DNA from: an uncultured Lachnospiraceae bacterium
GTDB lineage: Bacteria > Bacillota > Clostridia > Oscillospirales > CAG-272
NCBI GenBank assembly: GCA_964445865.1
Contig: CAYULZ010000002.1
Span: forward strand, 1 to 36,966
Direction of reading: 5' to 3'
Length of the DNA stretch: 36,966 bases
Under the pieces are notes generated by a model. That model worked only from the letters and a program-made list of their open reading frames with translations, did not search any database and was not told where the DNA came from. Position numbers and translations under genes: made by a program. This document shows, piece after piece, positions 3,091-36,966 of the stretch (position 1 is its first letter; the number at the start of each line of letters is the position of its first letter).

Positions 3091-3194
3091 AGCCTCGGTA
3101 TATGTTTTTCCGGTCGGATGAATTCCGCAAACAAAAAACGGCAATAGCCGAAAGAAAGCAGAATAAGCACAGGACAGAAAGGATATCAATAAAA

Positions 3195-3989: not shown

Positions 3990-3992
3990 ACG

Positions 3993-5060
3993 ATGTTGGA
4001 TATGAATTTTTACCGCGGAAAGCGGGTACTTGTAACGGGACATACGGGCTTTAAGGGCTCGTGGATGTGCCGCGCGCTCGTGAATGCGGGTGCAATCGTG
4101 ACGGGCTTTTCTCTCACGCCGCCCACCAAGCCGTCCTTGTTCGACATGGCGTCGATCGCGAACGGCATGGATTCGGTGATCGGAGATGTGCGCGATCTTG
4201 CCGCCATGAAGGCTTGCTTTGAGCGTGCCAAGCCCGAAATCGTTTTCCATCTGGCGGCCCAGCCGATCGTACGCGACAGCTATAAGGATCCGCATTATAC
4301 CTATGAGACCAACGTGATGGGCACGGTGAATATCCTTGAGTGCGTACGCACGTCGGATACCGTTCGCTCCTTCCTTAACGTCACGACCGATAAGGTCTAC
4401 CGTAACAACGAGTGGGAATGGGGCTACCGTGAGAACGAGCCGCTTGACGGCTTTGACCCCTATTCGAACAGCAAATCCTGCTCGGAGCTTGTAACGCATA
4501 GCTACAAGGATTCCTTCTTTGCCGACGGACACGTCGCCATTTCGACGGCGCGTGCAGGTAACGTGATCGGCGGTGGCGATTTCGCCAACGACCGCATCAT
4601 TCCCGACTGTATCCGCGCGGCTCTCGCCCATAACGATATCATCGTGCGCAACCCCCATTCTACGCGTCCGTATCAGTACGTGCTCGAGCCTGTGATGGCG
4701 TATCTCATGATCGCTGCCGCACAGTACGAGGACGGCAAGTACGCAGGCTACTACAATGTCGGACCCGACGAGTGTGATTGCTTCCGTACGGGCGCGCTCG
4801 TCGACCTGTTCTGCCGCACGTGGGGCGAGGATATGAAGTGGATCAACCGCTACGACGGAGGCCCCCACGAGGCCAATTTCCTGAAGCTTGATTGCTCTAA
4901 GCTCAAGACCGTCTTTGATTGGAAGCCCGTTTGGAATCTGGGTGAGGCCGTGGCAAGAACCGTCGAGTGGTCGAAGGTGATGCGCGACGGCGGCGATGTG
5001 ACGGCTTGTATGGACCGTCAGATCGAGGCCTTTATTGCAGAGAGCACGTGGATTCAATAA
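3993..5060 (+). CDS. rfbG: CDP-glucose 4,6-dehydratase
   Basis: Extended SDR with VLVTGHTGFKGSW (Rossmann GxxGxxG) and a PYSNSK YxxxK catalytic motif. Length about 355 aa. Starts 3 nt after rfbF. Confidence 0.9.
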   Translation: MLDMNFYRGKRVLVTGHTGFKGSWMCRALVNAGAIVTGFSLTPPTKPSLFDMASIANGMDSVIGDVRDLAAMKACFERAKPEIVFHLAAQPIVRDSYKDPHYTYETNVMGTVNILECVRTSDTVRSFLNVTTDKVYRNNEWEWGYRENEPLDGFDPYSNSKSCSELVTHSYKDSFFADGHVAISTARAGNVIGGGDFANDRIIPDCIRAALAHNDIIVRNPHSTRPYQYVLEPVMAYLMIAAAQYEDGKYAGYYNVGPDECDCFRTGALVDLFCRTWGEDMKWINRYDGGPHEANFLKLDCSKLKTVFDWKPVWNLGEAVARTVEWSKVMRDGGDVTACMDRQIEAFIAESTWIQ

Positions 5061-5146
5061 GGAGCATTTTTCAGAATCAGCGTCAGTTTTCTGCCGCTGA
5101 TTCTGTGTTTACAAGAAAAAATAACGCCGAAAGGCAGGGAGTAAGT

Positions 5147-6082
5147 ATGAAAAAAATCAGTATTATGATCCCGTGTTATAACGAGGAGGAAAACGTCGTC
5201 CCGATGAGTGAGGCGGTCGTAGCGCAAATGGAGCAGCTTCCGCAGTACGACTACGAGCTTCTCTTTATCGACAACTGCTCGCAGGATAACACGCGTCCGC
5301 TTTTGCGCGAGATCTGCGCAAAGAACCCGAAGATCCGCGCGATCTTCAATTCGAAGAATTTCGGTCAGTTCAATTCCCCCTATCACGGCTATTGCCAGAC
5401 TACGGGCGACTGCACCATCGGCATGTGCTGTGACTTTCAGGATCCCGTGGAGATGATCCCGAAGCTCATTGAGCAGTGGGAGGCAGGCTATAAGGTCGTA
5501 TGCTGTGTCAAGACCTCAAGTAAGGAAAATAAGCTGATGTACGCGCTTCGCAGTGTGTATTACCGCATGATCAAGAAGATGTCGAGTGTCGAGCAGATCG
5601 AGCATTTTACGGGCTTTGGACTGTACGACAAGAGCTTCATTCAGGTCATGCGAGATCTGGACGATCCCACGCCCTTCTTGCGCGGTGTCATCGCCGAGCT
5701 CGGCCCGAACATCAAGCTTGTGGAGTACGAGCAGGCGAAACGCAGAGCGGGGAAGACGCACAACAACTTCTTCTCGCTGTACGATGCGGCGATGCTCTCG
5801 TTTACCTCGTATACGAAGATCGGCCTGCGTCTTTCGTCCTTCCTCGGCATGCTGATGAGCGGCGGCAGCTTCTTTGCAGCCATTGTTTGCTGCATTCTTA
5901 AGCTGATCGATCCCAAGTATTTCTTTACGACGGGCACGGTACCGATCATTCTGACGATTCTGTTCGTCGGCGGTCTGCAGCTGTTCTTCATCGGCTTTGC
6001 AGGCGAATACATTATGTCCATCAACGCGCGTTCCATGAGAAGACCGCTCGTGGTGGAGGAGGAACGCATCAATTTTGATTGA
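5147..6082 (+). CDS. GT2-family polyprenol-phosphate glycosyltransferase (GtrB/CsbB/ArnC-like)
   Basis: IMIPCYNEEENV, FIDNCSQD and CDFQDP (DxD-type) motifs in a GT-A domain, plus two C-terminal TM helices (FFAAIVCCILKL; VPIILTILFVGGLQLFFIGFAG). This is the architecture of bactoprenol-phosphate sugar transferases. ATG 5147 (Met61 of the track ORF) is used. Confidence 0.85.
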   Translation: MKKISIMIPCYNEEENVVPMSEAVVAQMEQLPQYDYELLFIDNCSQDNTRPLLREICAKNPKIRAIFNSKNFGQFNSPYHGYCQTTGDCTIGMCCDFQDPVEMIPKLIEQWEAGYKVVCCVKTSSKENKLMYALRSVYYRMIKKMSSVEQIEHFTGFGLYDKSFIQVMRDLDDPTPFLRGVIAELGPNIKLVEYEQAKRRAGKTHNNFFSLYDAAMLSFTSYTKIGLRLSSFLGMLMSGGSFFAAIVCCILKLIDPKYFFTTGTVPIILTILFVGGLQLFFIGFAGEYIMSINARSMRRPLVVEEERINFD

Positions 6083-6116
6083 TCAACATACACCGCATGA
6101 AATGAAAGGAGAGCGC

Positions 6117-8033
6117 ATGATGAAACGATTGTTAGCATTGCTGATGTGCCTTGCTTGCCTGACAGGTGTTTTGTTCTCGTGTGACGATACACCTGCGGAA
6201 CCGACCGACACGACACCGACGGATACAACACCCGCCACCAACCCCTCCGGCGATGATACCCCCTCGACCGAAGCAGGCAATGCCGATCATTGGTATTTGC
6301 TGGGCTACACCATCGTGTACCCCAAAAACGCTTCCGCAACGGTGAAGGAGGCGGCCGCGCGTCTTCGAGCCAACATTGCCTCGAAGCTGAATTGGCCCGT
6401 AGAGCGCGTGCATATGATCTCCGATGACCAAACGACCGGAACCGCTTATTCGATTTTGATCGGCGAAACGAATCGCGAGCCATCGAAGGTTTATTATGAG
6501 AATCCCGACAATCGGGCATTTATCGTACACGCCGTCAACCGAACGATCGTTTTGGCAGGCTCTTCCGACGAGCGTGTCGACCAGGCGGTGCAATATTTTG
6601 AAGAGACGTATTTGGCGAACGCGGAGGAGGGCAAGATTGCCGCCGTAACCGATTACGCCCTGAAGCTCGACCCCAATCGTGTTCCTCCTGCAGATCAGGA
6701 TTTCGGCGGCTACGAATTCATCATTATGACCGATCTGCAGACCGACTATGAGGTTCAGGCGCCCGAGGAAATCGGCAGTGACGGTATCAACAAGGCGCTC
6801 TTCGAGCGTAACAAGCTGGTCGAGAGCAAGTACAACGTCAAGATCACCGAAAAGAGAAATCTTCACGCTACCGTAGACCAAGCAAACAGCTACCTGAAGG
6901 ATATGCAGTCCAGTGGTGACTACTTTGCCGATCTTTACTCGAACTATGCGATAAAGATGATTTCGAGCCATGCCACCCAAGGCTATTATCTGAACGTTTG
7001 CGACCTGCAATCTCTCCGCCTTGACGGCGAGTGGTGGGATCAGGATTTCATCAATGAGTTCAAGATCAACAACTACCTTTACACGCTGACAGGAGACATT
7101 CAGACCAATGACGAGATCCAGGAGATTCTGTTGGCGATGAATCTGTCGCTGTACAACAAGACCTATCCCGAAAAGAACTTCTACGACATCGTAGTCAAAA
7201 ATGGTGCTTGGACGTGGCAGGAATTTTACAATACGTGGATTAACTTCGGCTCGTATGATGGCGGCACGGCCGGTAAGGTAGACAGCGACGATAAGGTTGG
7301 CTATTACTACGACTGCCGTACGGCAAGCTATTTTTACATGGCGTCCGGACTGAATGCTTTTAGCGTCCAGAACAATCAGCCCGTTCTTACGATTGATTCC
7401 TCTAATGCACTGCTCGTGATGGATTTTCTGCGGTATATCACAGATGCGCACCAGAATCTCAAGACCGTTCGTCTTGACGATGTGAATACAGGTGGTGGCT
7501 ATGAGGCAGGTAATAAACACTTCGCAGCAGGAAAGGCTCTGTTTGTTACCGGCCGCCTTGATGACATGATTACCTATCAGCAGGATATGCAGGATACCGT
7601 GGCGTACGTGCCCTTTCCGAAGTATGCAGCCAATCAGGATCGCTACTACTCACTCGTGCACATGTGCTTTACGCCGATCGCGATCAGCGCCAATGTTAGA
7701 GATGCAGAAAGAACCGCTTTGATTACCGAGGCACTCTGCTTCTATTCCGATGCGTTGGATCGTGAGGTGGAGGAGCTTCTGTTGGAGGAGACTGCCGATG
7801 AGGAGGTTCGCGAGATCCTTCAGCTGACGTTGGATTCCAAAACGTACGACATGGAGTATACGGCCAATATTATGGGTTGGACGGGTTTGACGAACGACAC
7901 GCTGTTCGTAAGGGGAAAGCTTAGTACGTACAAGGATGAGATGGATAATCTCTCTAAGCAGGCGATCAATGTTCGCGGCACCGGAACGCTGCAAAACTTC
8001 CTGAAAGCTTACGCGAATATGAATTTCAACTAA
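6117..8033 (+). CDS. Large lipoprotein: Thr/Pro linker, GH-accessory-like N-terminal domain, solute-binding-protein-like domain
   Basis: AAAGGAG lies 6 nt before ATG 6117. Signal peptide with Cys lipobox (MMKRLLALLMCLACLTGVLFSC). TPAEPTDTTPTDTTPATNP linker. The C-terminal ~430 aa resemble family-1 extracellular sugar-binding lipoproteins, but no ABC permease genes are nearby. Confidence 0.75.
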   Translation: MMKRLLALLMCLACLTGVLFSCDDTPAEPTDTTPTDTTPATNPSGDDTPSTEAGNADHWYLLGYTIVYPKNASATVKEAAARLRANIASKLNWPVERVHMISDDQTTGTAYSILIGETNREPSKVYYENPDNRAFIVHAVNRTIVLAGSSDERVDQAVQYFEETYLANAEEGKIAAVTDYALKLDPNRVPPADQDFGGYEFIIMTDLQTDYEVQAPEEIGSDGINKALFERNKLVESKYNVKITEKRNLHATVDQANSYLKDMQSSGDYFADLYSNYAIKMISSHATQGYYLNVCDLQSLRLDGEWWDQDFINEFKINNYLYTLTGDIQTNDEIQEILLAMNLSLYNKTYPEKNFYDIVVKNGAWTWQEFYNTWINFGSYDGGTAGKVDSDDKVGYYYDCRTASYFYMASGLNAFSVQNNQPVLTIDSSNALLVMDFLRYITDAHQNLKTVRLDDVNTGGGYEAGNKHFAAGKALFVTGRLDDMITYQQDMQDTVAYVPFPKYAANQDRYYSLVHMCFTPIAISANVRDAERTALITEALCFYSDALDREVEELLLEETADEEVREILQLTLDSKTYDMEYTANIMGWTGLTNDTLFVRGKLSTYKDEMDNLSKQAINVRGTGTLQNFLKAYANMNFN

Positions 8034-26784: not shown

Positions 26785-28149
26785 TTATTCTTCCTTATCG
26801 TTGGGAGTGGTTGTATTTTCGGGAGCGGCTTCGGGAGACGGTTCGTCGGTCGACGGCGACTCCTGCGCACCCTTCTTTTTGAATATGCGGTGGAACAGAT
26901 GGGAGATCCTTTCAAGCAGATGCTTGACGGATCGGACGATTCTTGCGGTAAACCGTTCGTGGTGCTCGTGAGGATCGACCATAGAATCGTAGGTGTAATA
27001 ATTGGCGGTTTCCGTAGGTAGCTCGGCCTTTTTGAGACGGGAATCGATCAGCTCCTTGCCGATGGAAACGATCATGGAAAAGAGCGGAACGCCGATGATC
27101 ATACCCGCGAGCCCGAAATACGCACCCATAATGGTGATAGCAATGATCACGCCGAGCGAGCTGAGCTTGGTGGAGTTTCCGAGGATTTTCGGGGCAATGA
27201 CGTTGCCGTCGATCTGCTGAATGATCAGGATCAACGCAAGGAAAATGAATGCCTTTTTCGGATCGGCGAGAAAAACCAGCAAAAACGAGGGAATGCCGCC
27301 AATGAAGGGACCGAAAATCGGTATGATATTGGTAATACCGATGATTACGGAAATAAACAGTGCGTGAGGAATACCGAAGATGAGGAATACGAACAAGCAA
27401 AGCGTCATGACGATGCAGGCATCCACGAGAACGCCGATGAAATAGTCACCGAAGGTGTGGTTCGCCAAGCGCAGATAGCGGCGAAGCGTGAGCCTTGCCT
27501 TGCCGGGAAGCAGAGCGGTTGTAAGCTTGCGGAATTGCGCGCCTATGCGCTCCTTGGAGATGAGCATATAGATGGCAATGAAGATGGCGAGGATAAAGTT
27601 TTTAATTCCGACGACCAGCTCCATACCGATCGTTTTGATATAGCCGATAATAGTTTCAAATAGGCTGCCCGAGGCCGAGAAGGCTTCCGTGATCGCACCG
27701 ATGAGCGCATCTTCATGAACGTACTGTCGGAATTCCTCCTGTGAAGCAAAGCGATTGATGAGCTTGTTGATCCAATCGGTGGCAGTGGCCAGATATTCGT
27801 CCATTTTTCCAACGAGCGTAGCGATACTCTGGATCAGAGAGGGAATGAGTAGGTAGATAAAGAAAACGATGGCCAGAAGCGCCGTGAAAAAGGTCATGAA
27901 CAGAGAGAGGCCGCGACATACGCTTTTCTTTTGGATCTTTTTGAAAACCTTGTATTCATACATTTTCAACAGCGGATTGAGCATATAGGCGATGGCCGCA
28001 CCGATGAGAATGGGGGAGATCACCGAAAGGATCGCACCGAAGAAGGACGCGATCGCTCCAATATTGACGATGGCAAACAGAACGACGAAGGTCACACAGC
28101 ATGCGATTAGAATGCGTCCGCTCTTTTTCTTATTGTCGGGATTGAACAT
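26785..28149 (-). CDS. AI-2E family transporter (PerM/UPF0118 permease)
   Basis: Multi-TM protein with IPIFGPFIGGIPSFLLV and QQIDGNVIAPKILG motifs. ATG 28149 (Met28 of the track ORF) lies 8 nt after GAGGAG. The stop is 2 nt before the htpG start. Confidence 0.85.
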   Translation of the reverse strand: MFNPDNKKKSGRILIACCVTFVVLFAIVNIGAIASFFGAILSVISPILIGAAIAYMLNPLLKMYEYKVFKKIQKKSVCRGLSLFMTFFTALLAIVFFIYLLIPSLIQSIATLVGKMDEYLATATDWINKLINRFASQEEFRQYVHEDALIGAITEAFSASGSLFETIIGYIKTIGMELVVGIKNFILAIFIAIYMLISKERIGAQFRKLTTALLPGKARLTLRRYLRLANHTFGDYFIGVLVDACIVMTLCLFVFLIFGIPHALFISVIIGITNIIPIFGPFIGGIPSFLLVFLADPKKAFIFLALILIIQQIDGNVIAPKILGNSTKLSSLGVIIAITIMGAYFGLAGMIIGVPLFSMIVSIGKELIDSRLKKAELPTETANYYTYDSMVDPHEHHERFTARIVRSVKHLLERISHLFHRIFKKKGAQESPSTDEPSPEAAPENTTTPNDKEE

Positions 28150-28178
28150 AAAACCGTACTCCTCTGAATGATGGACTG

Positions 28179-28197
28179 ATATCTGACAAACAGATAT
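28179..28197. promoter_or_regulatory. 7-bp inverted repeat at the predicted start site of the AI-2E/htpG operon
   Basis: ATATCTG-ACAAA-CAGATAT lies immediately downstream (on the minus strand) of the -10 at 28202-28207. Confidence 0.35.
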
Positions 28198-28201
28198 TAT
28201 T

Positions 28202-28230
28202 ATTTTATATTTTTTTGCCTCATAAGTCAA
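28202..28230 (-). promoter_or_regulatory. Sigma-A promoter of the AI-2E-htpG operon
   Basis: The minus strand reads TTGACT (28230-28225), 17-nt spacer, TAAAAT (28207-28202). Confidence 0.5.
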
Positions 28231-28245
28231 GGGAAAACCGCAAAA

Positions 28246-28280
28246 TTTACAGATTCAAAATAAATATGATAATATTTATT
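28246..28280 (+). promoter_or_regulatory. Candidate ispE promoter overlapped by a 9-bp AT palindrome
   Basis: TTTACA (28246-28251), 18-nt spacer, TGaTAATAT (-10 at 28270-28275). The palindrome AATAAATAT-GATA-ATATTTATT (28259-28280) covers the -10. Confidence 0.4.
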
Positions 28281-28353
28281 GAAAAAATATTGATTTTATG
28301 GTATCCTTAAAGGGAAGACCTCCCCAAAGAGGGAAAAGGAAGGGAGACCGAAC

Positions 28354-29235
28354 ATGGAGTCCATGATCGCGCTTGGATACGCAAAAATCAATTTGCATTT
28401 GGATATTACGGGACGGAGAGATGATGGCTATCATAATGTCGAGACCGTCATGCAGAGCATTTCGCTTGCCGATACCGTCACGGTTTCTGCCTGTGAGGAT
28501 CAAGAAATTACCGTATGCTGCGACAAGCTAGGGGTACCGACCGGGGACCGCAATCTTGCCGTTCGCGCAGCACGGCTTTATATGGAGAGCGTTGGTGTCC
28601 GTCGCGGCTTGCATATTGACATACAGAAGAACATTCCCCTGGCGGCAGGCATGGCGGGCGGAAGTGCCGACGCTGCAGCCGTTTTGCGTGCGGTTAACCG
28701 CCTTTGCGGCGAGCCGCTCGACCGCGAGGCGCTTTGTACGATTGGTGCGCGTCTCGGTGCGGACGTGCCGTTTTGTATCGTGGGGGGAAGCTCCTATGCC
28801 GACGGACGCGGCGATTGTCTGCACGAATTTCCGTCCATGCCCGACTGCTATCTTGTGGCCGCCTGCGGCGGAGAGGGCGTTTCCACGCCTTGGGCCTACG
28901 GCCTGATCGACCGCACCTATTCGAATTTTGACGGCACCTGTTATACACCTCATACGACGGATGCGCTTCGCCATGCCGTGCAGGAGGGCGACCTTCGCGC
29001 GCTTGCCGCGAGGATGTATAACGTCTTTGAAGCACCGATCCTTGCCGAGCGTCCCGTGGCGGCGTCGATTCGTCAAGCGATGCTTTCGGGCGGTGCACTC
29101 GGTGCGATGATGAGCGGCAGCGGTCCGTCGGTCTTCGGCATCTTTGATGACGAGGCGCGCGCGACGGCCGTGACGGAAACACTTGTCGAAAGGGGATATT
29201 TTGCCGCCGTTTGTCGTCCTGTGGCGAGCGTGTGA
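28354..29235 (+). CDS. ispE: 4-diphosphocytidyl-2-C-methyl-D-erythritol kinase
   Basis: AKINLHLDITGRRDDGYHNVETVMQSI and the GHMP kinase motif PLAAGMAGGSADAAA. Confidence 0.9.
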   Translation: MESMIALGYAKINLHLDITGRRDDGYHNVETVMQSISLADTVTVSACEDQEITVCCDKLGVPTGDRNLAVRAARLYMESVGVRRGLHIDIQKNIPLAAGMAGGSADAAAVLRAVNRLCGEPLDREALCTIGARLGADVPFCIVGGSSYADGRGDCLHEFPSMPDCYLVAACGGEGVSTPWAYGLIDRTYSNFDGTCYTPHTTDALRHAVQEGDLRALAARMYNVFEAPILAERPVAASIRQAMLSGGALGAMMSGSGPSVFGIFDDEARATAVTETLVERGYFAAVCRPVASV

Positions 29236-29286
29236 CCCGCGTAACAAAAAAATCAAAAAAAGACGGGGGAAAACCGAGAAATATCG

Positions 29287-29316
29287 TTGACAAAGGACGG
29301 CTTTTGATGGTATAAT
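29287..29316 (+). promoter_or_regulatory. Sigma-A promoter of the Dlt-like envelope-modification operon
   Basis: TTGACA (29287-29292), 18-nt spacer, TGgTATAAT (TATAAT 29311-29316). Confidence 0.65.
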
Positions 29317-29362
29317 TAAATGCGTGTTTTTTCTGCCTCTCAAAGAGAGAAAAAACAAATTT

Positions 29363-30361
29363 ATGAGTACGAACGGAGGACAAGCCGTGTCATATAAATC
29401 GGATATGCAAGCGTATACTGCCGACCTGAATCGGCGCAAAAAAATGATGTTTACGGCCGTTAAGATCACGGCCGCTGTGCTCGCACTTTTGCTGATTGCA
29501 ACGACGGTGCTGGTGATCGTGGACGTGGCAAGCGGCAACGTCGGTGAACGCACGGAAACGGGTGACAGCTCATCGTCCTTGATCAAGCCGGCCAACGGCA
29601 AGAGCGTGACGGTCTATACGGGCGATACGGTTGCTTATCGGACTCTGGTGGAGTTCCCGAGCGGCTATGAGCTCGAATACGAGTCAAACGCTGATCTCTC
29701 CAAGGCGGGCAAATATAGCGTGAGCTATAAGCTCCTCAAGGACGGCAAGGTGGTCGACACCTATAAGCTGACGCTGATCGTCGAGGAGCGCGACGTCGAG
29801 ATGGAGACCCTAATGGCACTCGTCGAAAAGAAGGCCGCCGCGCTCGGCATCACCAAGGAGATGTCGAAGGTCGAGCAGGTGCGCAAGATTTATGATTTTG
29901 TTAACTCTCCGAGCAAGGGGAAAAACGATGCGAATATTTATTTTAACGATCAGTCCAATACCGGCTCCGACCGCACCGATTGGGAGACCAAATGGGTCGA
30001 GGAGGCTACGCTGACGCTTCGCGATATGAAGGGAGACTGCTATTCCTATTACGCGGTATCCAAGGCTTTCTTTGAATATTTTGGTATTGAGAACATCGGT
30101 ATTCAGCGCGGTGTGAAATCGGGACTCGATATTGACGGCACGCATTTCTGGAGCATCGTTAACGTGGGAACCGAGAAGGAGCCGAAGTGGTATTACTATG
30201 ACTCTACCCGTTTGGCCAATACCTTTTCCGACGGTACACGAAACGCCTGTCTCATTACGCTCGAAAAGCTTCAGAGCTACGTGACCACGGCCAATCAATA
30301 CGACTTCTACTATTTCGATCCGTCCAAATACCCGACGGCCGAAACGACGCCGCTGTCGTAA
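29363..30361 (+). CDS. Membrane-anchored extracellular transglutaminase-like cysteine protease-fold protein
   Basis: N-terminal TM (VKITAAVLALLLIATTVLVIV), a beta-rich Ig-like segment, then a Cys-His-Asp core (MKGDCYSYYAV ... GTHFWSIVNV ... WYYYDSTR). The start is ambiguous: ATG 29363 has no SD, whereas GTG 29387 lies 6 nt after GGAGGA. Confidence 0.75.
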   Translation: MSTNGGQAVSYKSDMQAYTADLNRRKKMMFTAVKITAAVLALLLIATTVLVIVDVASGNVGERTETGDSSSSLIKPANGKSVTVYTGDTVAYRTLVEFPSGYELEYESNADLSKAGKYSVSYKLLKDGKVVDTYKLTLIVEERDVEMETLMALVEKKAAALGITKEMSKVEQVRKIYDFVNSPSKGKNDANIYFNDQSNTGSDRTDWETKWVEEATLTLRDMKGDCYSYYAVSKAFFEYFGIENIGIQRGVKSGLDIDGTHFWSIVNVGTEKEPKWYYYDSTRLANTFSDGTRNACLITLEKLQSYVTTANQYDFYYFDPSKYPTAETTPLS

Positions 30362-30370
30362 GAGGGAATC

Positions 30371-31870
30371 ATGCGAAAGAATATTTTACAGTACTTGGAA
30401 ACGACGGCCGCGCGCCTGCCCGATAAGCTCGCCTTCTCAACAGGGAAGGAGGGCATGACCTTCTCGGAGGTTCTTGCAGGGGCACGCGCCATCGGCTCGT
30501 ATCTTGCCGAAAACGGCTATTACCGTGAGCCGGTCGTGATCTTTATGGACAAGCATCCGCACACCGTGACGGCCTTTTTCGGCGCGATCATGGCGGGCTG
30601 CTTCTACGTTTGCATCGACGAAAAAATGCCGCATACGCGCATCGAGGCCATCTTTGATAGCCTTAAGCCACGCGTGCTGATCGCGGATAAAAAGAATATG
30701 GCCGTAGCCGAAACACTGGGTGTCGAGCGTGTCTGCCTTTACGACGACGTGGCAAGCACCGAGGTCGACGACGCGCGCCTTGCCGAGGTTCGTCGCCATC
30801 AGTGTGATACCGACGCGATCTACGTGGTTTTTACCTCGGGCTCGACGGGCATCCCGAAGGGCGTGGTGGCTTGCCACCGCTCGGTCATCGATTATACCGA
30901 GTCGCTCTGCGAGGCGATCGGCTTCTCGGAGGAGACGGTGTTTGCCAATCAGACGCCCCTCTATTTCGATGCCCCCTTAAAGGAGATCATGCCGACGCTC
31001 AAGCTCGGCGCGACGACCTATTTCGTTCCCAAAATGCTCTTTTCCTTTCCCGTGCGCCTGCTCGATTACCTCGACGAGCATCGCATCAATACGGTCTGCT
31101 GGGTGGTTTCCGCCCTCGTGCAGATCTCATCGCTAGGCGCGCTGGAGAAGAGAAGTCCCAAAACGCTTACCACCGTTTGCTTCGGTAGTGAAGTCTTTCC
31201 GCGCAAGCAGTACGATCTGTGGCGCGCGGCTCTGCCCGATGCGAAATTCTTCAATCTCTACGGTCCGACCGAGGCCACGGGCATGTCCTGCTATTGGGCG
31301 GCCACGCGTGCCCTTGACGAAAACGAGCCGATTCCCGTCGGCCGTCCCTTCGACAATACCGACATTCTGTTGCTCGACGACGAAAACCGTCTTTCGCAGG
31401 AGGGCGAGATCTGCATTCGCGGCACCTGCCTGACGATGGGATACTATAACAATCCCGAAAAGACCGACGAGGTCTTTGTGCAAAATCCGCTTTGTACGGC
31501 CTATCCCGAGCGTATTTACCGTACGGGTGACATCGGCCGTATCAACGCGCATGGCGAGCTTGTGTTCATCTCGCGCAAGGATTCGCAGATCAAGCATATG
31601 GGGCATCGCATCGAGCTCGGTGAGATCGACGCGGCGGCACAGAAGCATGTCGACGTGCGTCGCACGGCCTGCGTCTATGACGATACGCATAAGCGCATCG
31701 CGCTCTTTTACGTCGGCGATGTGGAGGAGGGAGCACTCTCGTCCTTCCTCGCTACCTATTTGCCTCGCTACATGATGCCCGCACTCGTCGTGCGTCTCCC
31801 CGCCATTCCCCTGACCGACAACGGCAAGACCGATCGCCGCACGCTCCGCGAGCAGGCTACGGCTCTTTGA
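30371..31870 (+). CDS. Carrier-protein ligase of the ANL adenylating superfamily (DltA-like)
   Basis: Adenylation core motifs VVFTSGSTGIPKG (A3), LYFDAPL (A4, with Asp), NLYGPTEAT (A5), YRTGD (A7), GRKDSQIKHMGHRIELGEI-type (A8), PLTDNGKTDRR (A10). 499 aa, a stand-alone A domain like DltA. Confidence 0.85.
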   Translation: MRKNILQYLETTAARLPDKLAFSTGKEGMTFSEVLAGARAIGSYLAENGYYREPVVIFMDKHPHTVTAFFGAIMAGCFYVCIDEKMPHTRIEAIFDSLKPRVLIADKKNMAVAETLGVERVCLYDDVASTEVDDARLAEVRRHQCDTDAIYVVFTSGSTGIPKGVVACHRSVIDYTESLCEAIGFSEETVFANQTPLYFDAPLKEIMPTLKLGATTYFVPKMLFSFPVRLLDYLDEHRINTVCWVVSALVQISSLGALEKRSPKTLTTVCFGSEVFPRKQYDLWRAALPDAKFFNLYGPTEATGMSCYWAATRALDENEPIPVGRPFDNTDILLLDDENRLSQEGEICIRGTCLTMGYYNNPEKTDEVFVQNPLCTAYPERIYRTGDIGRINAHGELVFISRKDSQIKHMGHRIELGEIDAAAQKHVDVRRTACVYDDTHKRIALFYVGDVEEGALSSFLATYLPRYMMPALVVRLPAIPLTDNGKTDRRTLREQATAL

Positions 31871-31899
31871 TTATTATTACGGAAAGAAAGGATCAAGCC

Positions 31900-32127
31900 A
31901 TGGATCAGTTGATTGAAATTCTTACCTCCTTACACCCCGACGTGGATTTTCGCACGGCGACCGACCTCGTCGACGAGGGCATTCTCGACTCGCTCGACAT
32001 CGTGACGCTCGTGACTGAGATCGACGCCGCGTTTGACGTGACGGTTCCCGCTGAGGAAATCGTTCCTGAAAACTTTAATTCCGCCGAGGCGCTGATGGCA
32101 TTGATTGCGCGTCTCGACGAGGTCTGA
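31900..32127 (+). CDS. Acyl/peptidyl carrier protein (DltC-like)
   Basis: 75 aa with GILDSLDIVTLVTEID, a phosphopantetheine Ser in a DSL motif. AAAGGA lies upstream of ATG 31900 (Met12 of the track ORF). Confidence 0.8.
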   Translation: MDQLIEILTSLHPDVDFRTATDLVDEGILDSLDIVTLVTEIDAAFDVTVPAEEIVPENFNSAEALMALIARLDEV

Positions 32128-32139
32128 TCGGATAGAACG

Positions 32140-33729
32140 ATGCTGTTTACCTCATACGGCTTCCTCGCCTTTCTCGTCCTGCTGTTTGCCGTCTATTATC
32201 TGGCGCCGCGCCGTTGGCAATGGGGCATTCTGCTCGTCGCAAGCTATTCGTTTTACGCCTTTGCGGGTTTGCAGTATCTGCTCTTTATCCTTCTGACGAC
32301 GCTTTCGTCGTATCTCGTCGCGCGCTTGATGGCTCGCGGCCACCGCAGAGAAGAGGACTATCTTTCTCTACATAAGGCAGATATGGAAAAGGACGCACGG
32401 AAGGCTTACAAGGCAAAAGAGAAGAAAAAGCGCTTCCGCATTCTTGTTTGCGGTCTCGTTCTCAATTTCGGCGTGCTTGCGGTGCTCAAATACACGGGCT
32501 TTGCTGTCTATAATCTTAACGGTCTGCTCGGCGCATTCGGGAAAGAGCCGTTGACGATTCCGTCGCTGCTCTTGCCGATGGGTATCTCCTTTTATACCTT
32601 CCAGACAATGGGATATCTGATCGACGTCTACCGTGCGAAGGTGACGGCCGAGAAAAATCCCGCGCGCCTTGCGCTCTTCGTCTCGTTCTTCCCGCAGCTC
32701 GTGCAGGGACCAATCTCGCGCTACGGCGACCTCGCCGAACAGCTTTACGCGCCGCATTCCTTTGACGGCCGTAGCTTTTCGAGCGGCCTTTGGCGCATTC
32801 TGTGGGGCTATTTCAAAAAGCTCGTCATCGCCGACCGCGTGCTCGTCGCTATGAACACCATGCTCGACGCGCCCGAGGAATTCCGCGGTGCTTACGTGGC
32901 GCTGCTGATCCTCTTGTATTCGGTGCAGATCTACGCCGACTTTACGGGCGGTATCGACATCACGATCGGTATTGCCGAGGCTCTTGGTATCCGCCTTGCC
33001 GAAAACTTCGAGCGCCCCTTCTCGTCGACCTCGACGAAGGAATATTGGCGGCGCTGGCACATCACGATGGGTACGTGGTTTACCGACTACGTCTTTTATC
33101 CCATTTCGGTCTGCCGTCCCATGATGAAGCTCTCTAAGTGGAGCCGCGCGAAGCTCGGCACGACCGTCGGCAAGCGCGTGCCCGTGTATCTTGCTACGAT
33201 CGTCACGTGGTTTTTGACCGGACTTTGGCACGGTGCGGGCTGGAACTTCATCGTGTGGGGACTTCTTAACTGCGCGGTGATCCTCGTCTCGCAGGAGCTC
33301 GAGCCGCTCTACCGCCGCTTCCATGAGAAATTCCCGCGTCTCGGCACGTCGCGTGCTTACCATGATTTTGCCGCCACGCGAACCTTCCTTCTGATGGGCC
33401 TGATCCGCTCGCTCGACTGCTATCGCAACGTCGGCATGAGCTTCCGTATGTGGGGCAGTATGCTCACGGTATGGAACTGGGGTGATCTCTTTGGCGGCGG
33501 AATTCTCGATCTCGGCCTTTCGGTCGCAGACCTCATCATTCTTGCGGTCGCGGTAGCCTTCGTATTTTTCGTCAGCCGCAGAGAGGCAAAGGGAAGCGTG
33601 CGCGATTGGCTCTGGGAGCGTCCCGTGCGTGCGTCGGCTATCGCCGTCGTGCTGCTGCTTTGCGTCGTAATGCTTGGTGCATACGGTCACGGCTACGACG
33701 CGTCGCAATTCATCTATAATCAATTTTAA
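32140..33729 (+). CDS. MBOAT-family membrane O-acyltransferase (AlgI/DltB-like)
   Basis: Multi-TM protein of 529 aa. PMGISFYTFQ, FFPQLVQGPI, YWRRWHITM and the catalytic-His region FLTGLWHGAGWNF are typical MBOAT motifs. Confidence 0.9.
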   Translation: MLFTSYGFLAFLVLLFAVYYLAPRRWQWGILLVASYSFYAFAGLQYLLFILLTTLSSYLVARLMARGHRREEDYLSLHKADMEKDARKAYKAKEKKKRFRILVCGLVLNFGVLAVLKYTGFAVYNLNGLLGAFGKEPLTIPSLLLPMGISFYTFQTMGYLIDVYRAKVTAEKNPARLALFVSFFPQLVQGPISRYGDLAEQLYAPHSFDGRSFSSGLWRILWGYFKKLVIADRVLVAMNTMLDAPEEFRGAYVALLILLYSVQIYADFTGGIDITIGIAEALGIRLAENFERPFSSTSTKEYWRRWHITMGTWFTDYVFYPISVCRPMMKLSKWSRAKLGTTVGKRVPVYLATIVTWFLTGLWHGAGWNFIVWGLLNCAVILVSQELEPLYRRFHEKFPRLGTSRAYHDFAATRTFLLMGLIRSLDCYRNVGMSFRMWGSMLTVWNWGDLFGGGILDLGLSVADLIILAVAVAFVFFVSRREAKGSVRDWLWERPVRASAIAVVLLLCVVMLGAYGHGYDASQFIYNQF

Positions 33730-33741
33730 CGGAAACGCACC

Positions 33742-34791
33742 ATGAAAAAACGAATTTTGATCTCGGTGTCGGCGACTCTCGTGCTCGTGCTTCTGCTCGG
33801 GTGCGCGCAGGCACTGGTAACACCGAAATATACCGATAATCCCGAGGGGGCGCTGATCGGAGAATATTACGCCTCTGGCCTTGACCACGACGTGCTCTTT
33901 ATCGGAGATTGCGAGGTCTATGAAAGCTTTGTTCCCACGGTTCTGTGGGAGGAATACGGCATTCGCTCGTACGTGCGGGGCAGTGCCCAGCAGCTTACGT
34001 GGCAATCCTACTACCTCTTGGAGGAGACCTTTCAATACGAAAAGCCCAAGACTGTGGTCTTCAACGTGTTGGCACTCAAATACGGTACGCCGCAGAACGA
34101 GGCCTATAATCGCATGACGCTCGACGGCATGAAGTGGTCGCGTATCAAATGGAACGCGATCCGTGCCTCGATGACCGAGGACGAGAGCATGGTGGACTAC
34201 CTCTTTCCGCTCTTGCGATTCCATTCGCGCATTACGTCGCTCACGGGCGATGATTTCCGATATGCCTTCCGCGCACCGACCGTCTCGCATAACGGTTATC
34301 TCATGCAGACGGGCATCGAGCCGATGACCGACGAGGACGTGTACGTTCGCGGTCTTTCGGATTATACGCTTCCCCCGACGGCGATGGAATACCTCGATAA
34401 GATGCGCCTGCTTTGTGAAGAAAATGGCGCGGAGCTGATCCTCATCAAATCCCCGACCAACTCGTGGGGCTATTGGTGGTACGATGAGTGGGACGCACAG
34501 GTGGTCGACTATGCCGCCGCGCACGGACTTTCCTATTATAATTTTATACCCGCGTGCGAGGAGATCGGGATCGATTGGCAGCGCGACACCTATGACCGCG
34601 GTGTTCACCTGAACGTCTACGGCGCGGAAAAAATGACGCGCTATTTCGGCAAGCTTCTCTGTGAAAAGCACGGCTATGAAGCGAACACGCCGCAAAAGGG
34701 AAGTGATCCTGCATGGGATGCGCGCGTCACATGCTATTACGAGCAGAAAACAGCGCTCGAACAAGAAACGAAAAAGGAGAATAACTCATGA
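33742..34791 (+). CDS. DltD/SGNH-fold-like lipoprotein with Cys at the expected nucleophile position
   Basis: Lipobox LLLGC. Block-I-like VLFIGDCEVYES (Cys57, codon TGC at 33910-33912). C-terminal YDRGVHLNVYGAEKM resembles the D..H block of SGNH/DltD proteins. Confidence 0.7.
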   Translation: MKKRILISVSATLVLVLLLGCAQALVTPKYTDNPEGALIGEYYASGLDHDVLFIGDCEVYESFVPTVLWEEYGIRSYVRGSAQQLTWQSYYLLEETFQYEKPKTVVFNVLALKYGTPQNEAYNRMTLDGMKWSRIKWNAIRASMTEDESMVDYLFPLLRFHSRITSLTGDDFRYAFRAPTVSHNGYLMQTGIEPMTDEDVYVRGLSDYTLPPTAMEYLDKMRLLCEENGAELILIKSPTNSWGYWWYDEWDAQVVDYAAAHGLSYYNFIPACEEIGIDWQRDTYDRGVHLNVYGAEKMTRYFGKLLCEKHGYEANTPQKGSDPAWDARVTCYYEQKTALEQETKKENNS

Positions 34792-35321
34792 CAATCAAAC
34801 GCATTGGCGTATGCCTGCTTTCTATGATTCTGCTTTTGTCGATGCTTCTTTGCACCGTCGCGTGCGATGAAAAAGCACCCGATGAGCCGAATGATACGGA
34901 TCGCCCCTCCGAAACCGAGCTCGGCGTCTATACCGTTCGCTATAACGGTACTGTCATTGAGCTTGGCAAGGACGCCACGGCCGTTCTCAAAAAGCTCGGT
35001 GACCCGACATCCAAGCAATTCGTCGCCTCGTGCGGCGAGGGCGCCGGAGATCAATGGCAGTATATGTACCCGTCGATCGTGCTCTTTACTGTCAAGAGTG
35101 AGGATAGCGAGACCGTAGATGCTGTGGCATTGCGCGATGACATCGGCAAAACGGGGAAGAATATTACCATTGGCTCGACCGAGGCCGAAATGATTGCCGC
35201 TTACGGCGAACCCACAAAGCAAGGACAGAAGCGCCGCTACACCGAGGGAAGCTATACGCTTGAATTTCAGGTGGACGACGCAGGCATCGTTACGGCGGTT
35301 GAAATTCGTGTGGAGAATTGA
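34788..35321 (+). CDS. Lipoprotein made of two tandem ~60-aa repeats
   Basis: AAGGAG SD and ATGA overlap with the previous gene. Lipobox LCTVAC. The repeats are GTVIELGKDATAVLKKLGDPTSKQ...IVLFTV...VDAVAL and KNITIGSTEAEMIAAYGEPTKQG...YTLEFQV...VTAVEI. Confidence 0.6.
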   Translation: MTIKRIGVCLLSMILLLSMLLCTVACDEKAPDEPNDTDRPSETELGVYTVRYNGTVIELGKDATAVLKKLGDPTSKQFVASCGEGAGDQWQYMYPSIVLFTVKSEDSETVDAVALRDDIGKTGKNITIGSTEAEMIAAYGEPTKQGQKRRYTEGSYTLEFQVDDAGIVTAVEIRVEN

Positions 35322-35335
35322 TTTTGTGAAGGTTG

Positions 35336-35367
35336 TTGCGGGAACTTTTCTTGAAAAGTTCCCGCAA
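35336..35367. other. 14-bp perfect hairpin without a U-tract
   Basis: TTGCGGGAACTTTT-CTTG-AAAAGTTCCCGCAA lies 15 nt after the operon's last stop codon. Neither strand has a T-run after it. Confidence 0.4.
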
Positions 35368-35416
35368 ACTCTTTCAAAAGCTTCCTTGAAATTGGTTTTC
35401 ATACCGAAAATATTGT

Positions 35417-35467
35417 CCCGCGTATTGGATCGAGACTCCAATGCGCGGGCATTTTGCTTGTTTTTTT
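35417..35467 (+). terminator. Intrinsic terminator
   Basis: CCCGCGTATTGGA-TCGAGAC-TCCAATGCGCGGG (13 bp, one G-U pair), followed by CATTTTGCTTGTTTTTTT. Confidence 0.8.
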
Positions 35468-35529
35468 GTCGATTTAGCACTGTTCACAAATAATTAACAA
35501 AAAATATTTGAGAAAAAACGAAAAACCTC

Positions 35530-35558
35530 TTGACAAAAGGGGCAAAACATGATAAATT
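35530..35558 (+). promoter_or_regulatory. Sigma-A promoter of the hrcA-grpE operon
   Basis: TTGACA (35530-35535), 17-nt spacer, TAAATT (35553-35558). Confidence 0.6.
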
Positions 35559-35569
35559 TTATACAGTGT

Positions 35570-35596
35570 TTAGCACTTAAAACTTATGAGTGCTAA
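35570..35596. promoter_or_regulatory. CIRCE operator (HrcA binding site)
   Basis: TTAGCACTT-N9-GAGTGCTAA differs from the consensus TTAGCACTC-N9-GAGTGCTAA at one position. It sits right after the -10 and upstream of hrcA. Confidence 0.9.
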
Positions 35597-35630
35597 AATT
35601 TACTAAAAAAACGGAAAGGGAGGACCATGC

Positions 35631-36710
35631 ATGGCAAGCGATCACAACCAATTAAGCGAACGGAAAAAACTGATCCTGAAGGCGATCGTCGAAGCACATA
35701 TCGAAGGCGGCGAGCCCGTCGGATCCAAGTATATCATGCAAAACAACCTCCTCTCCTGCTCATCGGCAACCATTCGCAACGAAATGGCAGAGCTCGAGCA
35801 GCTTGGCTACCTGCAGCAGCCTCACACTTCGGCAGGGCGAGTGCCAAGTGAGCAGGGTTATCGCTTTTACGTGGATTCACTCGTCGAGCAATATGCAAGA
35901 ACGACACATGAGGTCGTGCAGATCAATCAGCTTCTGAAGGCCAAGATGCACGAGATCGACCAGATTCTCGAGATGGCCTCCAAGATGGCCTCGGCGATGA
36001 CCAACTATACGGGTATTGCCATCAAACCGAAGGCCTCGTCGGTGACGATGTCCAAGTTTGAGATCGTTTCGATCGATGAGAAGCAGTTTGCTATGGTTAT
36101 GATCACCTCGTCGGGCACGGTCAAGACCAAGAAGGTCAGCGTGCCGTCCGAGATCCCCACAGGCGCACTTAAGCAGCTCTCCGAGCTTCTCAATCGTGGC
36201 CTTTGCGGTCTGTCGGCCGATATGATCACGCTTCCTATTATTATGGAAATGGAAAACGAGATGGGCGACGCGGCTTTCCTCGTCAACCCCGCAGTCAAAT
36301 GTGTCTATGAAATCATGAATGAGATCGACGGCGGAGAGCTTCGCTTGTCGGGCCTCAATCATCTCTTGAAGTACCCCGAGTATTCGGATACGCAACAGTT
36401 CGGCCAGCTGCTCGGAACCTTAGAGAGTCAGGACGAAATTCTCGACCTTGTGTCGCAGTCGGATACCGACGACATTAACGTGCTGATCGGATCGGAAAGC
36501 CCCGTGAAGGTCATGAACAATTCGTCGCTCGTGTTCAAGCCGATCAAAAAGAACGGCCACACGGTCGGCGTCATCGGTATTCTCGGCCCGCGCCGTATGA
36601 ATTACCGACAAGTGCTGCAGACCATCGATGAGATCAGCGGAAGCATCGCCGACATGATCAACGAGCCACCCAATCAATTAAAAGAAAAAGGAGAGAACCA
36701 TGGAGGATAA
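35631..36710 (+). CDS. hrcA: Heat-inducible transcription repressor HrcA
   Basis: LSERKKLILKAIVEAHIEGGEPVGSKYI...SSATIRNEMAELEQLGYLQQPHTSAGRVPSEQGYRFYVD. GGGAGG lies 8 nt upstream. Confidence 0.92.
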   Translation: MASDHNQLSERKKLILKAIVEAHIEGGEPVGSKYIMQNNLLSCSSATIRNEMAELEQLGYLQQPHTSAGRVPSEQGYRFYVDSLVEQYARTTHEVVQINQLLKAKMHEIDQILEMASKMASAMTNYTGIAIKPKASSVTMSKFEIVSIDEKQFAMVMITSSGTVKTKKVSVPSEIPTGALKQLSELLNRGLCGLSADMITLPIIMEMENEMGDAAFLVNPAVKCVYEIMNEIDGGELRLSGLNHLLKYPEYSDTQQFGQLLGTLESQDEILDLVSQSDTDDINVLIGSESPVKVMNNSSLVFKPIKKNGHTVGVIGILGPRRMNYRQVLQTIDEISGSIADMINEPPNQLKEKGENHGG

Positions 36711-36966
36711 TCAAAACCGCGAGACCGTAGTGCCCGAAACTCCCGTTGAAGAAACGGTAGCCGAGGCGACAGAGAATACCGTCGTCGAGGAAACGGTCGC
36801 GACCGAGGAAGCCGCAACGGAGGAAAAGGCCTCGGGAAAGGATAAAAAGAAGACCAAAAAGGCAGAGGCCGAGGTTGCCCGCCTTGGCAAGGAGCTTGCC
36901 GAGCGCGAGGCGAAGATCGCCGAGATGAACGATCAGTATCTGCGGGTCTGTGCCGAGTACGATAAC
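36700..36966 (+). CDS. grpE: Nucleotide exchange factor GrpE (5' part; runs off the window)
   Basis: Absent from the ORF track because there is no stop in the window. ATG 36700 follows AAAGGAGAG and overlaps the hrcA stop. It translates as MEDNQNRE...(acidic)...LGKELAEREAKIAEMNDQYLRVCAEYDN, matching the GrpE YLR..AE..N helix. Position is the canonical hrcA-grpE order. Confidence 0.85.
   Translation, partial: MEDNQNRETVVPETPVEETVAEATENTVVEETVATEEAATEEKASGKDKKKTKKAEAEVARLGKELAEREAKIAEMNDQYLRVCAEYDN

Follow-up and report, generated by a model that had tools for sequence, protein, structure and literature searches.

The analyzed window comprised 36,966 nt of contig CAYULZ010000002.1 (NCBI GenBank assembly GCA_964445865.1) from an uncultured Lachnospiraceae bacterium. 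It contained six + strand open reading frames (ORFs), here termed g1 to g6, that were flanked by an ispE-like gene (28354–29235) on one side and by hrcA (35631–36710) on the other. These six genes form a single operon, from promoter to terminator, and encode a transglutaminase-like protein, a stand-alone adenylating enzyme, a carrier protein, an MBOAT (membrane-bound O-acyltransferase), a DltD-like SGNH-fold protein, and a lipoprotein. The operon probably specifies a carrier-protein-dependent MBOAT-SGNH pathway for the aminoacylation of a cell-envelope acceptor, which would be paralogous to the D-alanylation (Dlt) pathway of teichoic acids rather than Dlt itself, and for which a D-aspartate (D-Asp)-like cargo is the likeliest; moderate confidence is placed in this reading. 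The features of the operon are as follows.

29287–29316, + strand: sigma-70-type promoter (TTGACA, an 18-nt spacer with TG, TATAAT; 12 of 12 consensus positions).
29387–30361, + strand: g1, a transmembrane (TM) anchor followed by an extracytoplasmic Ig-like part and a transglutaminase-like Cys-His-Asp domain (alignment, AlphaFold2 model, and Foldseek).
30371–31870, + strand: g2, a stand-alone amino-acid-adenylating enzyme of 499 aa, of the ANL/nonribosomal peptide synthetase (NRPS) A-domain type (AMP-binding, TIGR01733).
31900–32127, + strand: g3, a phosphopantetheine carrier protein of 75 aa (PP-binding, 27 bits vs. a cut-off of 20.8).
32140–33729, + strand: g4, an MBOAT of 529 aa (MBOAT, 61 bits vs. 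a cut-off of 27).
33742–34791, + strand: g5, a DltD-like SGNH-fold protein, N-terminally membrane-anchored (AlphaFold2 model and Foldseek).
34788–35321, + strand: g6, a lipoprotein of 177 aa with lipobox Cys26, the start of which shares 4 nt with the end of g5.
35417–35461, + strand: intrinsic terminator (13-bp stem with eight G-C pairs, followed by a T-run; stem and T-run placed at 35417–35449).

The promoter was the sole perfect match within 28000–36966, and the TG that precedes its -10 element is of the extended sigma-70 type; the next promoter-like site (35530–35558) was located ahead of hrcA. When the orthologue-supported starts were used, the junctions from g1 to g6 measured 9, 29, 12, 12, and -4 nt. 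The initial annotation, which was made from the sequence alone, had described one promoter with tight or overlapping junctions and a gene order of A-C-B-D' instead of dltA-B-C-D, and both descriptions were borne out by the promoter match, the junctions, the terminator, and the ORF map. Three starts are available for g1, namely GTG 29387 (324 aa), ATG 29363, and GTG 29324, of which GTG 29387 is probably the one in use because GGAGG is located 7 nt upstream and the orthologues (P0121, P0122, and L001) are also 324 aa long.

The adenylating enzyme g2 contained all of the core motifs (SGSTGIPKG, YGPTE, YRTGD, and NGKTDR) and scored 216 bits against AMP-binding and 328 bits against TIGR01733 (cut-off 317), in agreement with its earlier description as a stand-alone enzyme. 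In a PDB search, module 2 of LgrA and DltA were equally close to g2 (~181 bits each). Its specificity code, which was read off a HMMER alignment with LgrA and verified on 44 orthologues, is DAKCVFLGMK (D200, A201, K204, C243, V269, F271, L296, G304, M305, and K486). The A4 motif LYFDAPL retains the Asp (D200) equivalent to Asp235, which binds the alpha-amino group; the substrate is therefore predicted to be an amino acid. Furthermore, the code DAKC[VI]FLG[MV]K was invariant in the 44 orthologues although these were just 53–91% identical, which suggests one conserved substrate. The retained Asp and the possibility of an amino acid cargo had both been proposed initially, and both hold. The 75-aa carrier g3 also proved to be as first described: its predicted attachment site is Ser31 in GILDSLDI (codon 31990–31992), the motif DS[LF]D was conserved among orthologues, and the orthologue calls were likewise 75 aa in length.

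This set of proteins follows the logic of Dlt, in which an adenylating enzyme, likewise stand-alone, works with a small carrier, an MBOAT, a Tyr shuttle in an FXYXXF motif, and a membrane-anchored DltD-like SGNH-fold transferase, and an amino acid thioester is relayed from the cytoplasm to the surface; such a relay is predicted here. In addition, DltA, DltB, and DltC were the best-named NCBIfam matches, and DltD was the top structural match of g5, all of which would suit an ordinary dlt operon in rearranged form, with the D-alanylation of teichoic acids as its function. However, the scores for all three equivalogs were far below the cut-offs. For DltA, g2 scored 269 vs. 560 bits (TIGR01734) and 267 vs. 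476 bits (NF003417); for DltC, g3 scored 40 vs. 68 and 28 vs. 52 bits (NF003464 and TIGR01688, respectively); and for DltB, a protein of ~400 aa, g4 scored 147 vs. 375 bits (TIGR04091). The code of g2 shared none of the eight variable positions with the DltA codes that were taken from PDB alignments of the solved enzymes of B. subtilis, B. cereus, and entry 7r27, the three codes being DLMTMCTVAK, DLMTLCTVAK, and DLMVLCTVAK; agreement was limited to two universally conserved positions, and the Cys that selects the enantiomer in the DltA pocket is a Phe in g2. The enzyme thus lies outside DltA and its D-alanine (D-Ala) code. Other differences from Dlt include the gene order, an MBOAT that is nearer to the AlgI type and carries a fused shuttle, an SGNH partner with Cys instead of Ser and no Pfam DltD match, the additional transglutaminase-like and lipoprotein partners, and a cluster-linked racemase of the aspartate type. 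A rearranged dlt operon is therefore highly improbable.

A different use of such a donor is found in the AlmE/AlmF/AlmG system of Vibrio cholerae, in which a DltA-like enzyme and a DltC-like carrier put glycine on lipid A. Its transferase, AlmG, is an enzyme of the lipid A acyltransferase family that acts at the cytoplasmic face, and the system has no MBOAT, Tyr shuttle, or SGNH partner. The operon would resemble Alm in that an adenylating enzyme and a carrier bring an amino acid other than D-Ala to an envelope molecule, and it differs in the transferase machinery.

The MBOAT of the operon aligned with DltB (6bug) only at residues 141–382, a stretch that includes the catalytic His in WHG; the predicted catalytic residue of g4, His364 (codon 33229–33231), is located in this motif and pairs with the DltB His. 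The protein was nearer to AlgI-type “MBOAT family O-acyltransferases” (35–41% identity), consistent with the AlgI-like size reported for it initially. Its C-terminus (...ASQFIYNQF) ends in FIYNQF (33709–33726, with the codon of Tyr526 at 33715–33717), which fits FXYXXF and sits on two extra C-terminal TM helices. Residues H364, H307, F524, and Y526 were invariant in all 74 g4 orthologues, and the last Phe of the motif was kept in 70 of them. Bacterial MBOAT-SGNH systems pass the acyl group via the Tyr of an FXYXXF hexapeptide, the residue that carries the acyl group in DltX and PatA; in Dlt the motif resides on the microprotein DltX, whereas MBOATs that use acyl-coenzyme A (acyl-CoA) have it fused at the C-terminus together with two extra helices (PMC12148441; JBC 2025, PatAB). 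A separate dltX-like ORF was not found, as had been noted before: the g4 C-terminus was the sole credible FxYxxF-stop in the 37-kb window, and two other matches to the pattern were spurious minus-strand ORFs of 15 and 40 aa. The AlgI-like size of the MBOAT and the missing dltX are not independent oddities but a single feature, because g4 carries the fused FIYNQF tail that is predicted to act as the acyl shuttle.

In this part of the pathway, the operon resembles PatA/PatB, a system for the O-acetylation of peptidoglycan, and AlgI/AlgJ; in both, the MBOAT measures ~500 aa, its two additional C-terminal helices end in FXYXXF, and the extracytoplasmic SGNH partner is a separate protein, with Ser where g5 has Cys. 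Those systems use acyl-CoA, and MBOAT-SGNH pathways other than Dlt have no carrier protein (PMC12148441). The locus thus reads as a hybrid, its donor being of the Dlt type and its fused shuttle of the PatA/AlgI type. An alternative would be that g4 and g5 constitute a complete, acyl-CoA-dependent O-acetylation pair and that g2 and g3 are mere neighbors, since both the size and the sequence of the MBOAT recall AlgI, the fused FXYXXF tail is typical of acetyl-CoA users, and some distant relatives with a Ser-type SGNH protein pair it with an MBOAT but lack an adenylating enzyme and a carrier (L089 is a plain MBOAT and SGNH pair). The gene neighborhoods speak to this question. Among 82 related loci that were surveyed, with each count taking only loci that had enough flank, the MBOAT was present in 73 of 74, the carrier in 67 of 70, g6 in 68 of 75, g2 in 41 of 54, and g1 in 39 of 52 (38 of the 39 loci having g2). 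The six-gene set also occurred in L002 amid unrelated flanks. In 13 of the 54 loci, g2 was absent within ~7 kb, and g1 was missing too in all but one, which favors the O-acetylation pair. These loci nevertheless retained the carrier, the MBOAT, the SGNH protein, and usually g6, so the carrier there must depend for its loading on an enzyme whose gene lies elsewhere. Moreover, 67 of 70 loci had g3, g4, and g5 side by side, with the carrier immediately upstream of the MBOAT even where g2 was lacking; a dedicated adenylating enzyme was present in most loci; the junctions in the window are 12–29 nt within one transcription unit; and independent Ser-type clusters repeat the order of adenylating enzyme (A), carrier, MBOAT, and SGNH protein with other codes. 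An O-acetylation pair with accidental neighbors is thus quite improbable. The six-gene unit is not obligatory, although its genes are co-conserved in related genomes.

Several other features were recorded at the related loci. In 11 loci (e.g., L024, 10539–11186), which were noted among the loci without g1 and g2, the cluster was directly followed by a ~215-aa ORF without a Pfam match. In L044 (4678–7084), two ORFs of 501 and 306 aa were inserted between the adenylating and carrier genes of an otherwise typical cluster, and the 501-aa ORF starts like a DNA methyltransferase. The gene thrS was found upstream of some g2-less loci; a functional link was rejected, and its position was taken as shared synteny. 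In the flanks of the 82 loci, only hrcA-grpE-dnaK synteny was detected, and no functionally informative conserved neighbor was found in Oscillospiraceae.

No significant Pfam or NCBIfam family was obtained for g1, g5, or g6 of the window, and PDB sequence and profile searches of these proteins returned nothing useful except for the Ig-like domain of g1. For g5, Pfam gave a faint match to Lipase_GDSL_2 only (E = 1e-3), and an annotation as PF27429 (LB_356) was listed for some of its homologues. Because the sequence support was faint, the fold was assigned from an AlphaFold model built with 34 diverse homologues (pLDDT 93.6, pTM 0.92), for which the best PDB matches in Foldseek were DltD structures (6o93, 6pfx, 3bma, and 7dxm), followed by other SGNH hydrolases and PatB. 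In this model, a helix that begins at residue 57 comes after a strand (residues 51–55), and Cys57 (codon 33910–33912) of the block I sequence FIGDCEVY is positioned at the strand-to-helix turn where SGNH enzymes have their nucleophile. The corresponding block of DltD is GSSEL with a Ser nucleophile, whereas g5 has GDCEV. Block V of g5 is D285-x-G-x-H289-L-N, in which His289 was invariant and Asp285 nearly so. A Ser-His-Asp triad was not found in g5; Cys57 is at the nucleophile position clade-wide. Among 113 full-length representatives of the family, GDCE was present in all those at least 41% identical to g5, and those at most 38% identical had G-x-S-x at block I, save three GSCN proteins (P0347, P0352, and P0354). 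In these three proteins, Arg replaces the otherwise invariant His of block V, and they may form an inactive or mechanistically different side branch. In a published survey of SGNH-like folds, Ser was at the nucleophile position throughout, Oskar excepted (PMC10792757); a Cys at this position is apparently without precedent, and Cys57 is predicted from its location to act as the nucleophile.

The initial annotation had described g5 as a DltD/SGNH-like lipoprotein with a Cys in the nucleophile position. The fold and the Cys are supported, but lipidation was rejected as a family feature: the Cys of the LLGC sequence is present in the window protein and not conserved in homologues, for which reason an N-terminal TM anchor like that of DltD is more likely, and the N-terminus was modeled as one long helix. 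The g5 family is large, with 5,910 clusters (50% identity) at E <= 1e-3 and 3,628 at E <= 1e-10. Its Cys clade was detected in at least 582 genomes in a scan of one genome per species that used the Cys-clade g5 alignment as query, since the broad SGNH alignment had no conserved stretch. The carriers of this clade were mainly Oscillospiraceae, Lachnospiraceae, and unclassified Clostridia of the gut and rumen, as well as a Bulleidia; Agathobacter, Mediterraneibacter, and Acetatifactor were among the sources of the related loci.

The proteins encoded at the two ends of the operon are also exported. In g1, the motifs GDC, GTHFW, and WYYYD were invariant in 20 homologues, and these contain D225-C226, H261, and D280; the codon of the catalytic-type Cys is 30038–30040. 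In the AlphaFold2 model (pLDDT 86), a TM helix was accompanied by a beta domain and an alpha/beta domain, and Foldseek matched TglA (9crn, 5e-4), a putative Cys protease (3isr), fish transglutaminase, TG2, and factor XIII with E-values of 5e-4 to 1e-2. The Ig-like part gave profile matches to 7js4 and 2kpn. Pfam Transglut_core did not match g1 of the window and matched one homologue alone, yet the conserved residues and the modeled fold agree with the surface-anchored transglutaminase-like Cys-His-Asp protein that had been proposed. In g6, the lipobox Cys26 was invariant in 12 diverse orthologues, as were Cys82, Tyr92, Asp118, and Thr122, and Pfam matches were weak only. It had been called a tandem-repeat lipoprotein; the lipoprotein part stands, whereas the repeat is visible as a pattern of two loosely similar modules with a self-alignment score that was not significant (32 vs. 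24 +/- 5 for shuffles). Natural fusions connect both proteins with the SGNH enzyme. P0248 joins a Cys-clade SGNH protein to an Ig-like/transglutaminase-like module (hhalign probability 98.8%, E = 8e-17), and P0241 carries a g6-like module at the C-terminus of a Cys-clade SGNH protein (99.1%, E = 6e-19). These fusions, together with the co-occurrence of the genes, suggest that g1, g5, and g6 work jointly on the outside of the membrane. Homologues of g1 and g6 were not found in the Ser-type clusters that were examined, and P0277 is a fusion of a Ser-type SGNH protein with a g1-like domain.

The identity of the cargo had been considered unreadable from the sequence, which appears too pessimistic. 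A racemase gene (228–250 aa) was located in the cluster of six Lachnospiraceae-type loci; it directly preceded g2 in L072, L076, L079, L080, and L082, and in L069 it directly preceded g5. These racemases belong to the aspartate racemase subfamily (TIGR00035, 190–237 bits vs. a cut-off of 93), and their best PDB match was the Pyrococcus aspartate racemase 1jfl (189 bits; glutamate racemase, 33 bits). Since a gene of this family is directly upstream of g2 in Lachnospiraceae versions of the cluster, the cargo is most likely D-Asp or else a D-amino acid that is likewise small and acidic, for example D-cysteate. In the pocket of g2, the Lys at code position 239 might form a pair with an acidic side chain, and the pocket might be shortened by Phe301 and Leu322, as we infer from the code. 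An Rfam scan detected no T-box or riboswitch that would name the amino acid. In L069 (3712–5550), a single instance of a gene for an AsnB-type, glutamine-hydrolyzing asparagine synthase (TIGR01536, 438 bits) was located within a Cys-clade cluster, with the MBOAT gene on one side and a g1-like gene of 602 aa on the other, which recalls AsnH.

A known precedent for such linkage is the RacD/AslA/AsnH route, which makes D-Asp (D-Asn) cross-bridges in Lactococcus, lactobacilli, and Enterococcus faecium. In Lactococcus, racD and the gene for the D-Asp ligase belong to one operon, and the D-Asp of the wall is amidated by AsnH (PMC4155827). The racemase-bearing clusters likewise place an aspartate racemase gene in one operon with the enzyme predicted to activate the D-amino acid and, at one related locus, include an AsnB-family amidotransferase. 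In contrast, the RacD/AslA/AsnH route is cytoplasmic and depends on an ATP-grasp ligase that acts on a peptidoglycan precursor, with no carrier, MBOAT, or SGNH protein (PMC4155827).

By analogy with Dlt and PatAB, the pathway would proceed in four steps. In the cytoplasm, g2 would adenylate an alpha-amino acid and load it as a thioester onto the Ser31-phosphopantetheine of g3. By means of His364, g4 would then move the aminoacyl group across the membrane onto its own Tyr526 in FIYNQF, which is the job of DltX in Dlt. The tail would pass the group to Cys57 of g5, where a thioester acyl-enzyme would replace the usual serine ester. Finally, g5 would deliver the group to the acceptor, possibly jointly with g1 and g6 on the outside of the membrane. 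The acceptor would be a wall polysaccharide, a teichoic-acid-like polymer, a glycolipid, or peptidoglycan. The models, the code, and the co-conservation support the initial proposal of an uncharacterized carrier/MBOAT/SGNH aminoacylation system that combines Dlt logic with non-Dlt parts, and no description of this carrier-fed Cys-variant system was found in the searchable literature.

Several observations weigh against this aminoacylation pathway as a whole or against its cargo. The Foldseek matches of g5 were modest (E ~1e-4, TM ~0.4), the acid of block V is spaced as D-x-G-x-H instead of the usual D-x-x-H, the role given to Cys57 is deduced from its position, and the 13 g2-less loci separate the donor from the rest of the pathway. 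With regard to D-Asp, there is no racemase gene in the window, two of the racemases also exceeded the NCBIfam cut-off for cysteate racemase, and the assignment draws on the neighborhood in one sub-lineage (six loci) and on one Lys. The NRPS code for Asp is DLTKVGHIGK, and the code of g2 is unlike it.

The acceptor might also be a protein or a lipid rather than a glycopolymer, with g6 itself being aminoacylated or a membrane glycolipid being the end product. Eukaryotic MBOATs acylate secreted proteins, g6 is as widespread as noted above (68 of 75 loci) and has four invariant residues outside the lipobox, and no glycopolymer synthesis genes were linked to the Cys-clade cluster in the flanks of the 82 loci. 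On the other hand, the fusion of g6 to the SGNH enzyme is a better fit to a subunit or binding module than to a stoichiometric substrate, a distant family member (L088) adjoins tagGH/tagD-like teichoic acid genes, and the characterized bacterial MBOAT-SGNH pairs all modify polymers (PMC12148441). A protein or lipid acceptor is therefore decidedly unlikely.

The replacement of Ser by Cys raises a further question, namely whether g5 forms amides. Thioester acyl-enzymes are typical of enzymes that form or exchange amides, such as sortases, L,D-transpeptidases, and transglutaminases. The pathway could thus carry out an extracellular N-aminoacylation of the stem-peptide diamino acid or of an amino sugar, with g1 completing or remodeling the linkage. 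The Cys clade specifically co-occurs with, and is fused to, a transglutaminase-like Cys-His-Asp domain; in addition, D-Asp is a known bridge residue of peptidoglycan (PMC4155827), and one locus encodes the AsnB/AsnH-like amidotransferase. However, this proposal is purely inferential, the transglutaminase-like fusion was found with a Ser-type SGNH protein as well (P0277), the known D-Asp bridges are made in the cytoplasm by ATP-grasp ligases (PMC4155827), and the Cys may merely be tolerated in strict anaerobes. Amide formation is accordingly regarded as unlikely. A more specific version, which we consider rather unlikely, would be an extracytoplasmic Cys-thioester relay in which D-Asp (or D-Asn after amidation) moves from the carrier thioester to the Tyr ester of the MBOAT and the Cys57 thioester, and ends as an amide on an amine of peptidoglycan or wall polysaccharide outside the cell, with participation of the transglutaminase-like enzyme, be it fused or co-encoded. 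If such a relay were true, it would be a new route for D-amino-acid branches or cross-bridges of the wall that is independent of ATP-grasp ligases, and g5 would be the first enzyme of the SGNH fold whose nucleophile is a cysteine.

Two other features of the window were noted. A small glycan-synthesis block at 3102–8033, 21 kb upstream of the operon, contained genes for a nucleotidyl transferase, an NAD-dependent epimerase/dehydratase, and a family 2 glycosyltransferase, as well as a 652-aa ORF without a Pfam match; its connection to the operon was not established. An antisense ORF of 798 aa (32368–34764, − strand) overlaps the MBOAT and SGNH genes. It had no gene support, was rejected as a gene, and was ascribed to codon and composition bias.

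Beyond the Cys clade, the Ser-type relatives again displayed the layout of adenylating enzyme, carrier, MBOAT with FxYxxF, and SGNH protein, with different codes. In L084 (1671–6349; also L085), the code of L084 is SMLYIFLDIK, and its MBOAT was called as two ORFs (67 and 466 aa). The L084 cargo may not be an amino acid, because the alpha-amino-binding Asp235 is missing. In L087 (4623–10294), the adenylating enzyme has the code DAIRVFIGVK; it was accompanied by a carrier of 75 aa, an MBOAT of 531 aa that terminates in FVYMNF, and an SGNH protein, and directly after the cluster was a gene with Radical_SAM and LAM_C domains (lysine 2,3-aminomutase-like); beta-lysine may be the cargo of this branch. 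In L088 (2007–8810), a distant Ser-type SGNH gene without an MBOAT adjoined tagGH-like genes (ABC2_membrane and ABC_tran), a tagD-like gene (CTP_transf_like), and a further gene of at least 1029 aa, which hints that some family members might act on teichoic-acid-type polymers. A plasmid search for a reference dlt operon found none and returned AlgI-like MBOATs and an unrelated Paenibacillus cluster. The latter (L083, 6301–12307; Paenibacillus cellulosilyticus NZ_CP054613.1) encodes the closest adenylating enzyme of the plasmid collection (38% identity) and has no MBOAT; it comprised SDR, aminoglycoside-N-acetyltransferase-like, GNAT, KAS III-like, and metallo-beta-lactamase-fold genes and a 76-aa carrier that was 42% identical to g3.

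The relatives with other codes and tailoring enzymes suggest that envelope aminoacylation systems form a family whose cargos are diverse, and the locus in the window appears, from these comparisons, to be one branch of diversified carrier-fed envelope acylation systems that are undescribed in the searchable literature. Dlt has so far been the sole characterized carrier-protein-fed MBOAT-SGNH pathway, and the locus and its relatives would represent a second, large branch, to which the standard Dlt and PatAB assays are directly applicable. With the predicted acidic cargo, the surface charge would shift in the opposite sense to the cationic effect of D-Ala. The carriers of this system are abundant gut Oscillospiraceae and Lachnospiraceae, in which such a modification of the wall could bear on resistance to antimicrobial peptides, sensitivity to phages and lysozyme, and recognition by the host immune system.

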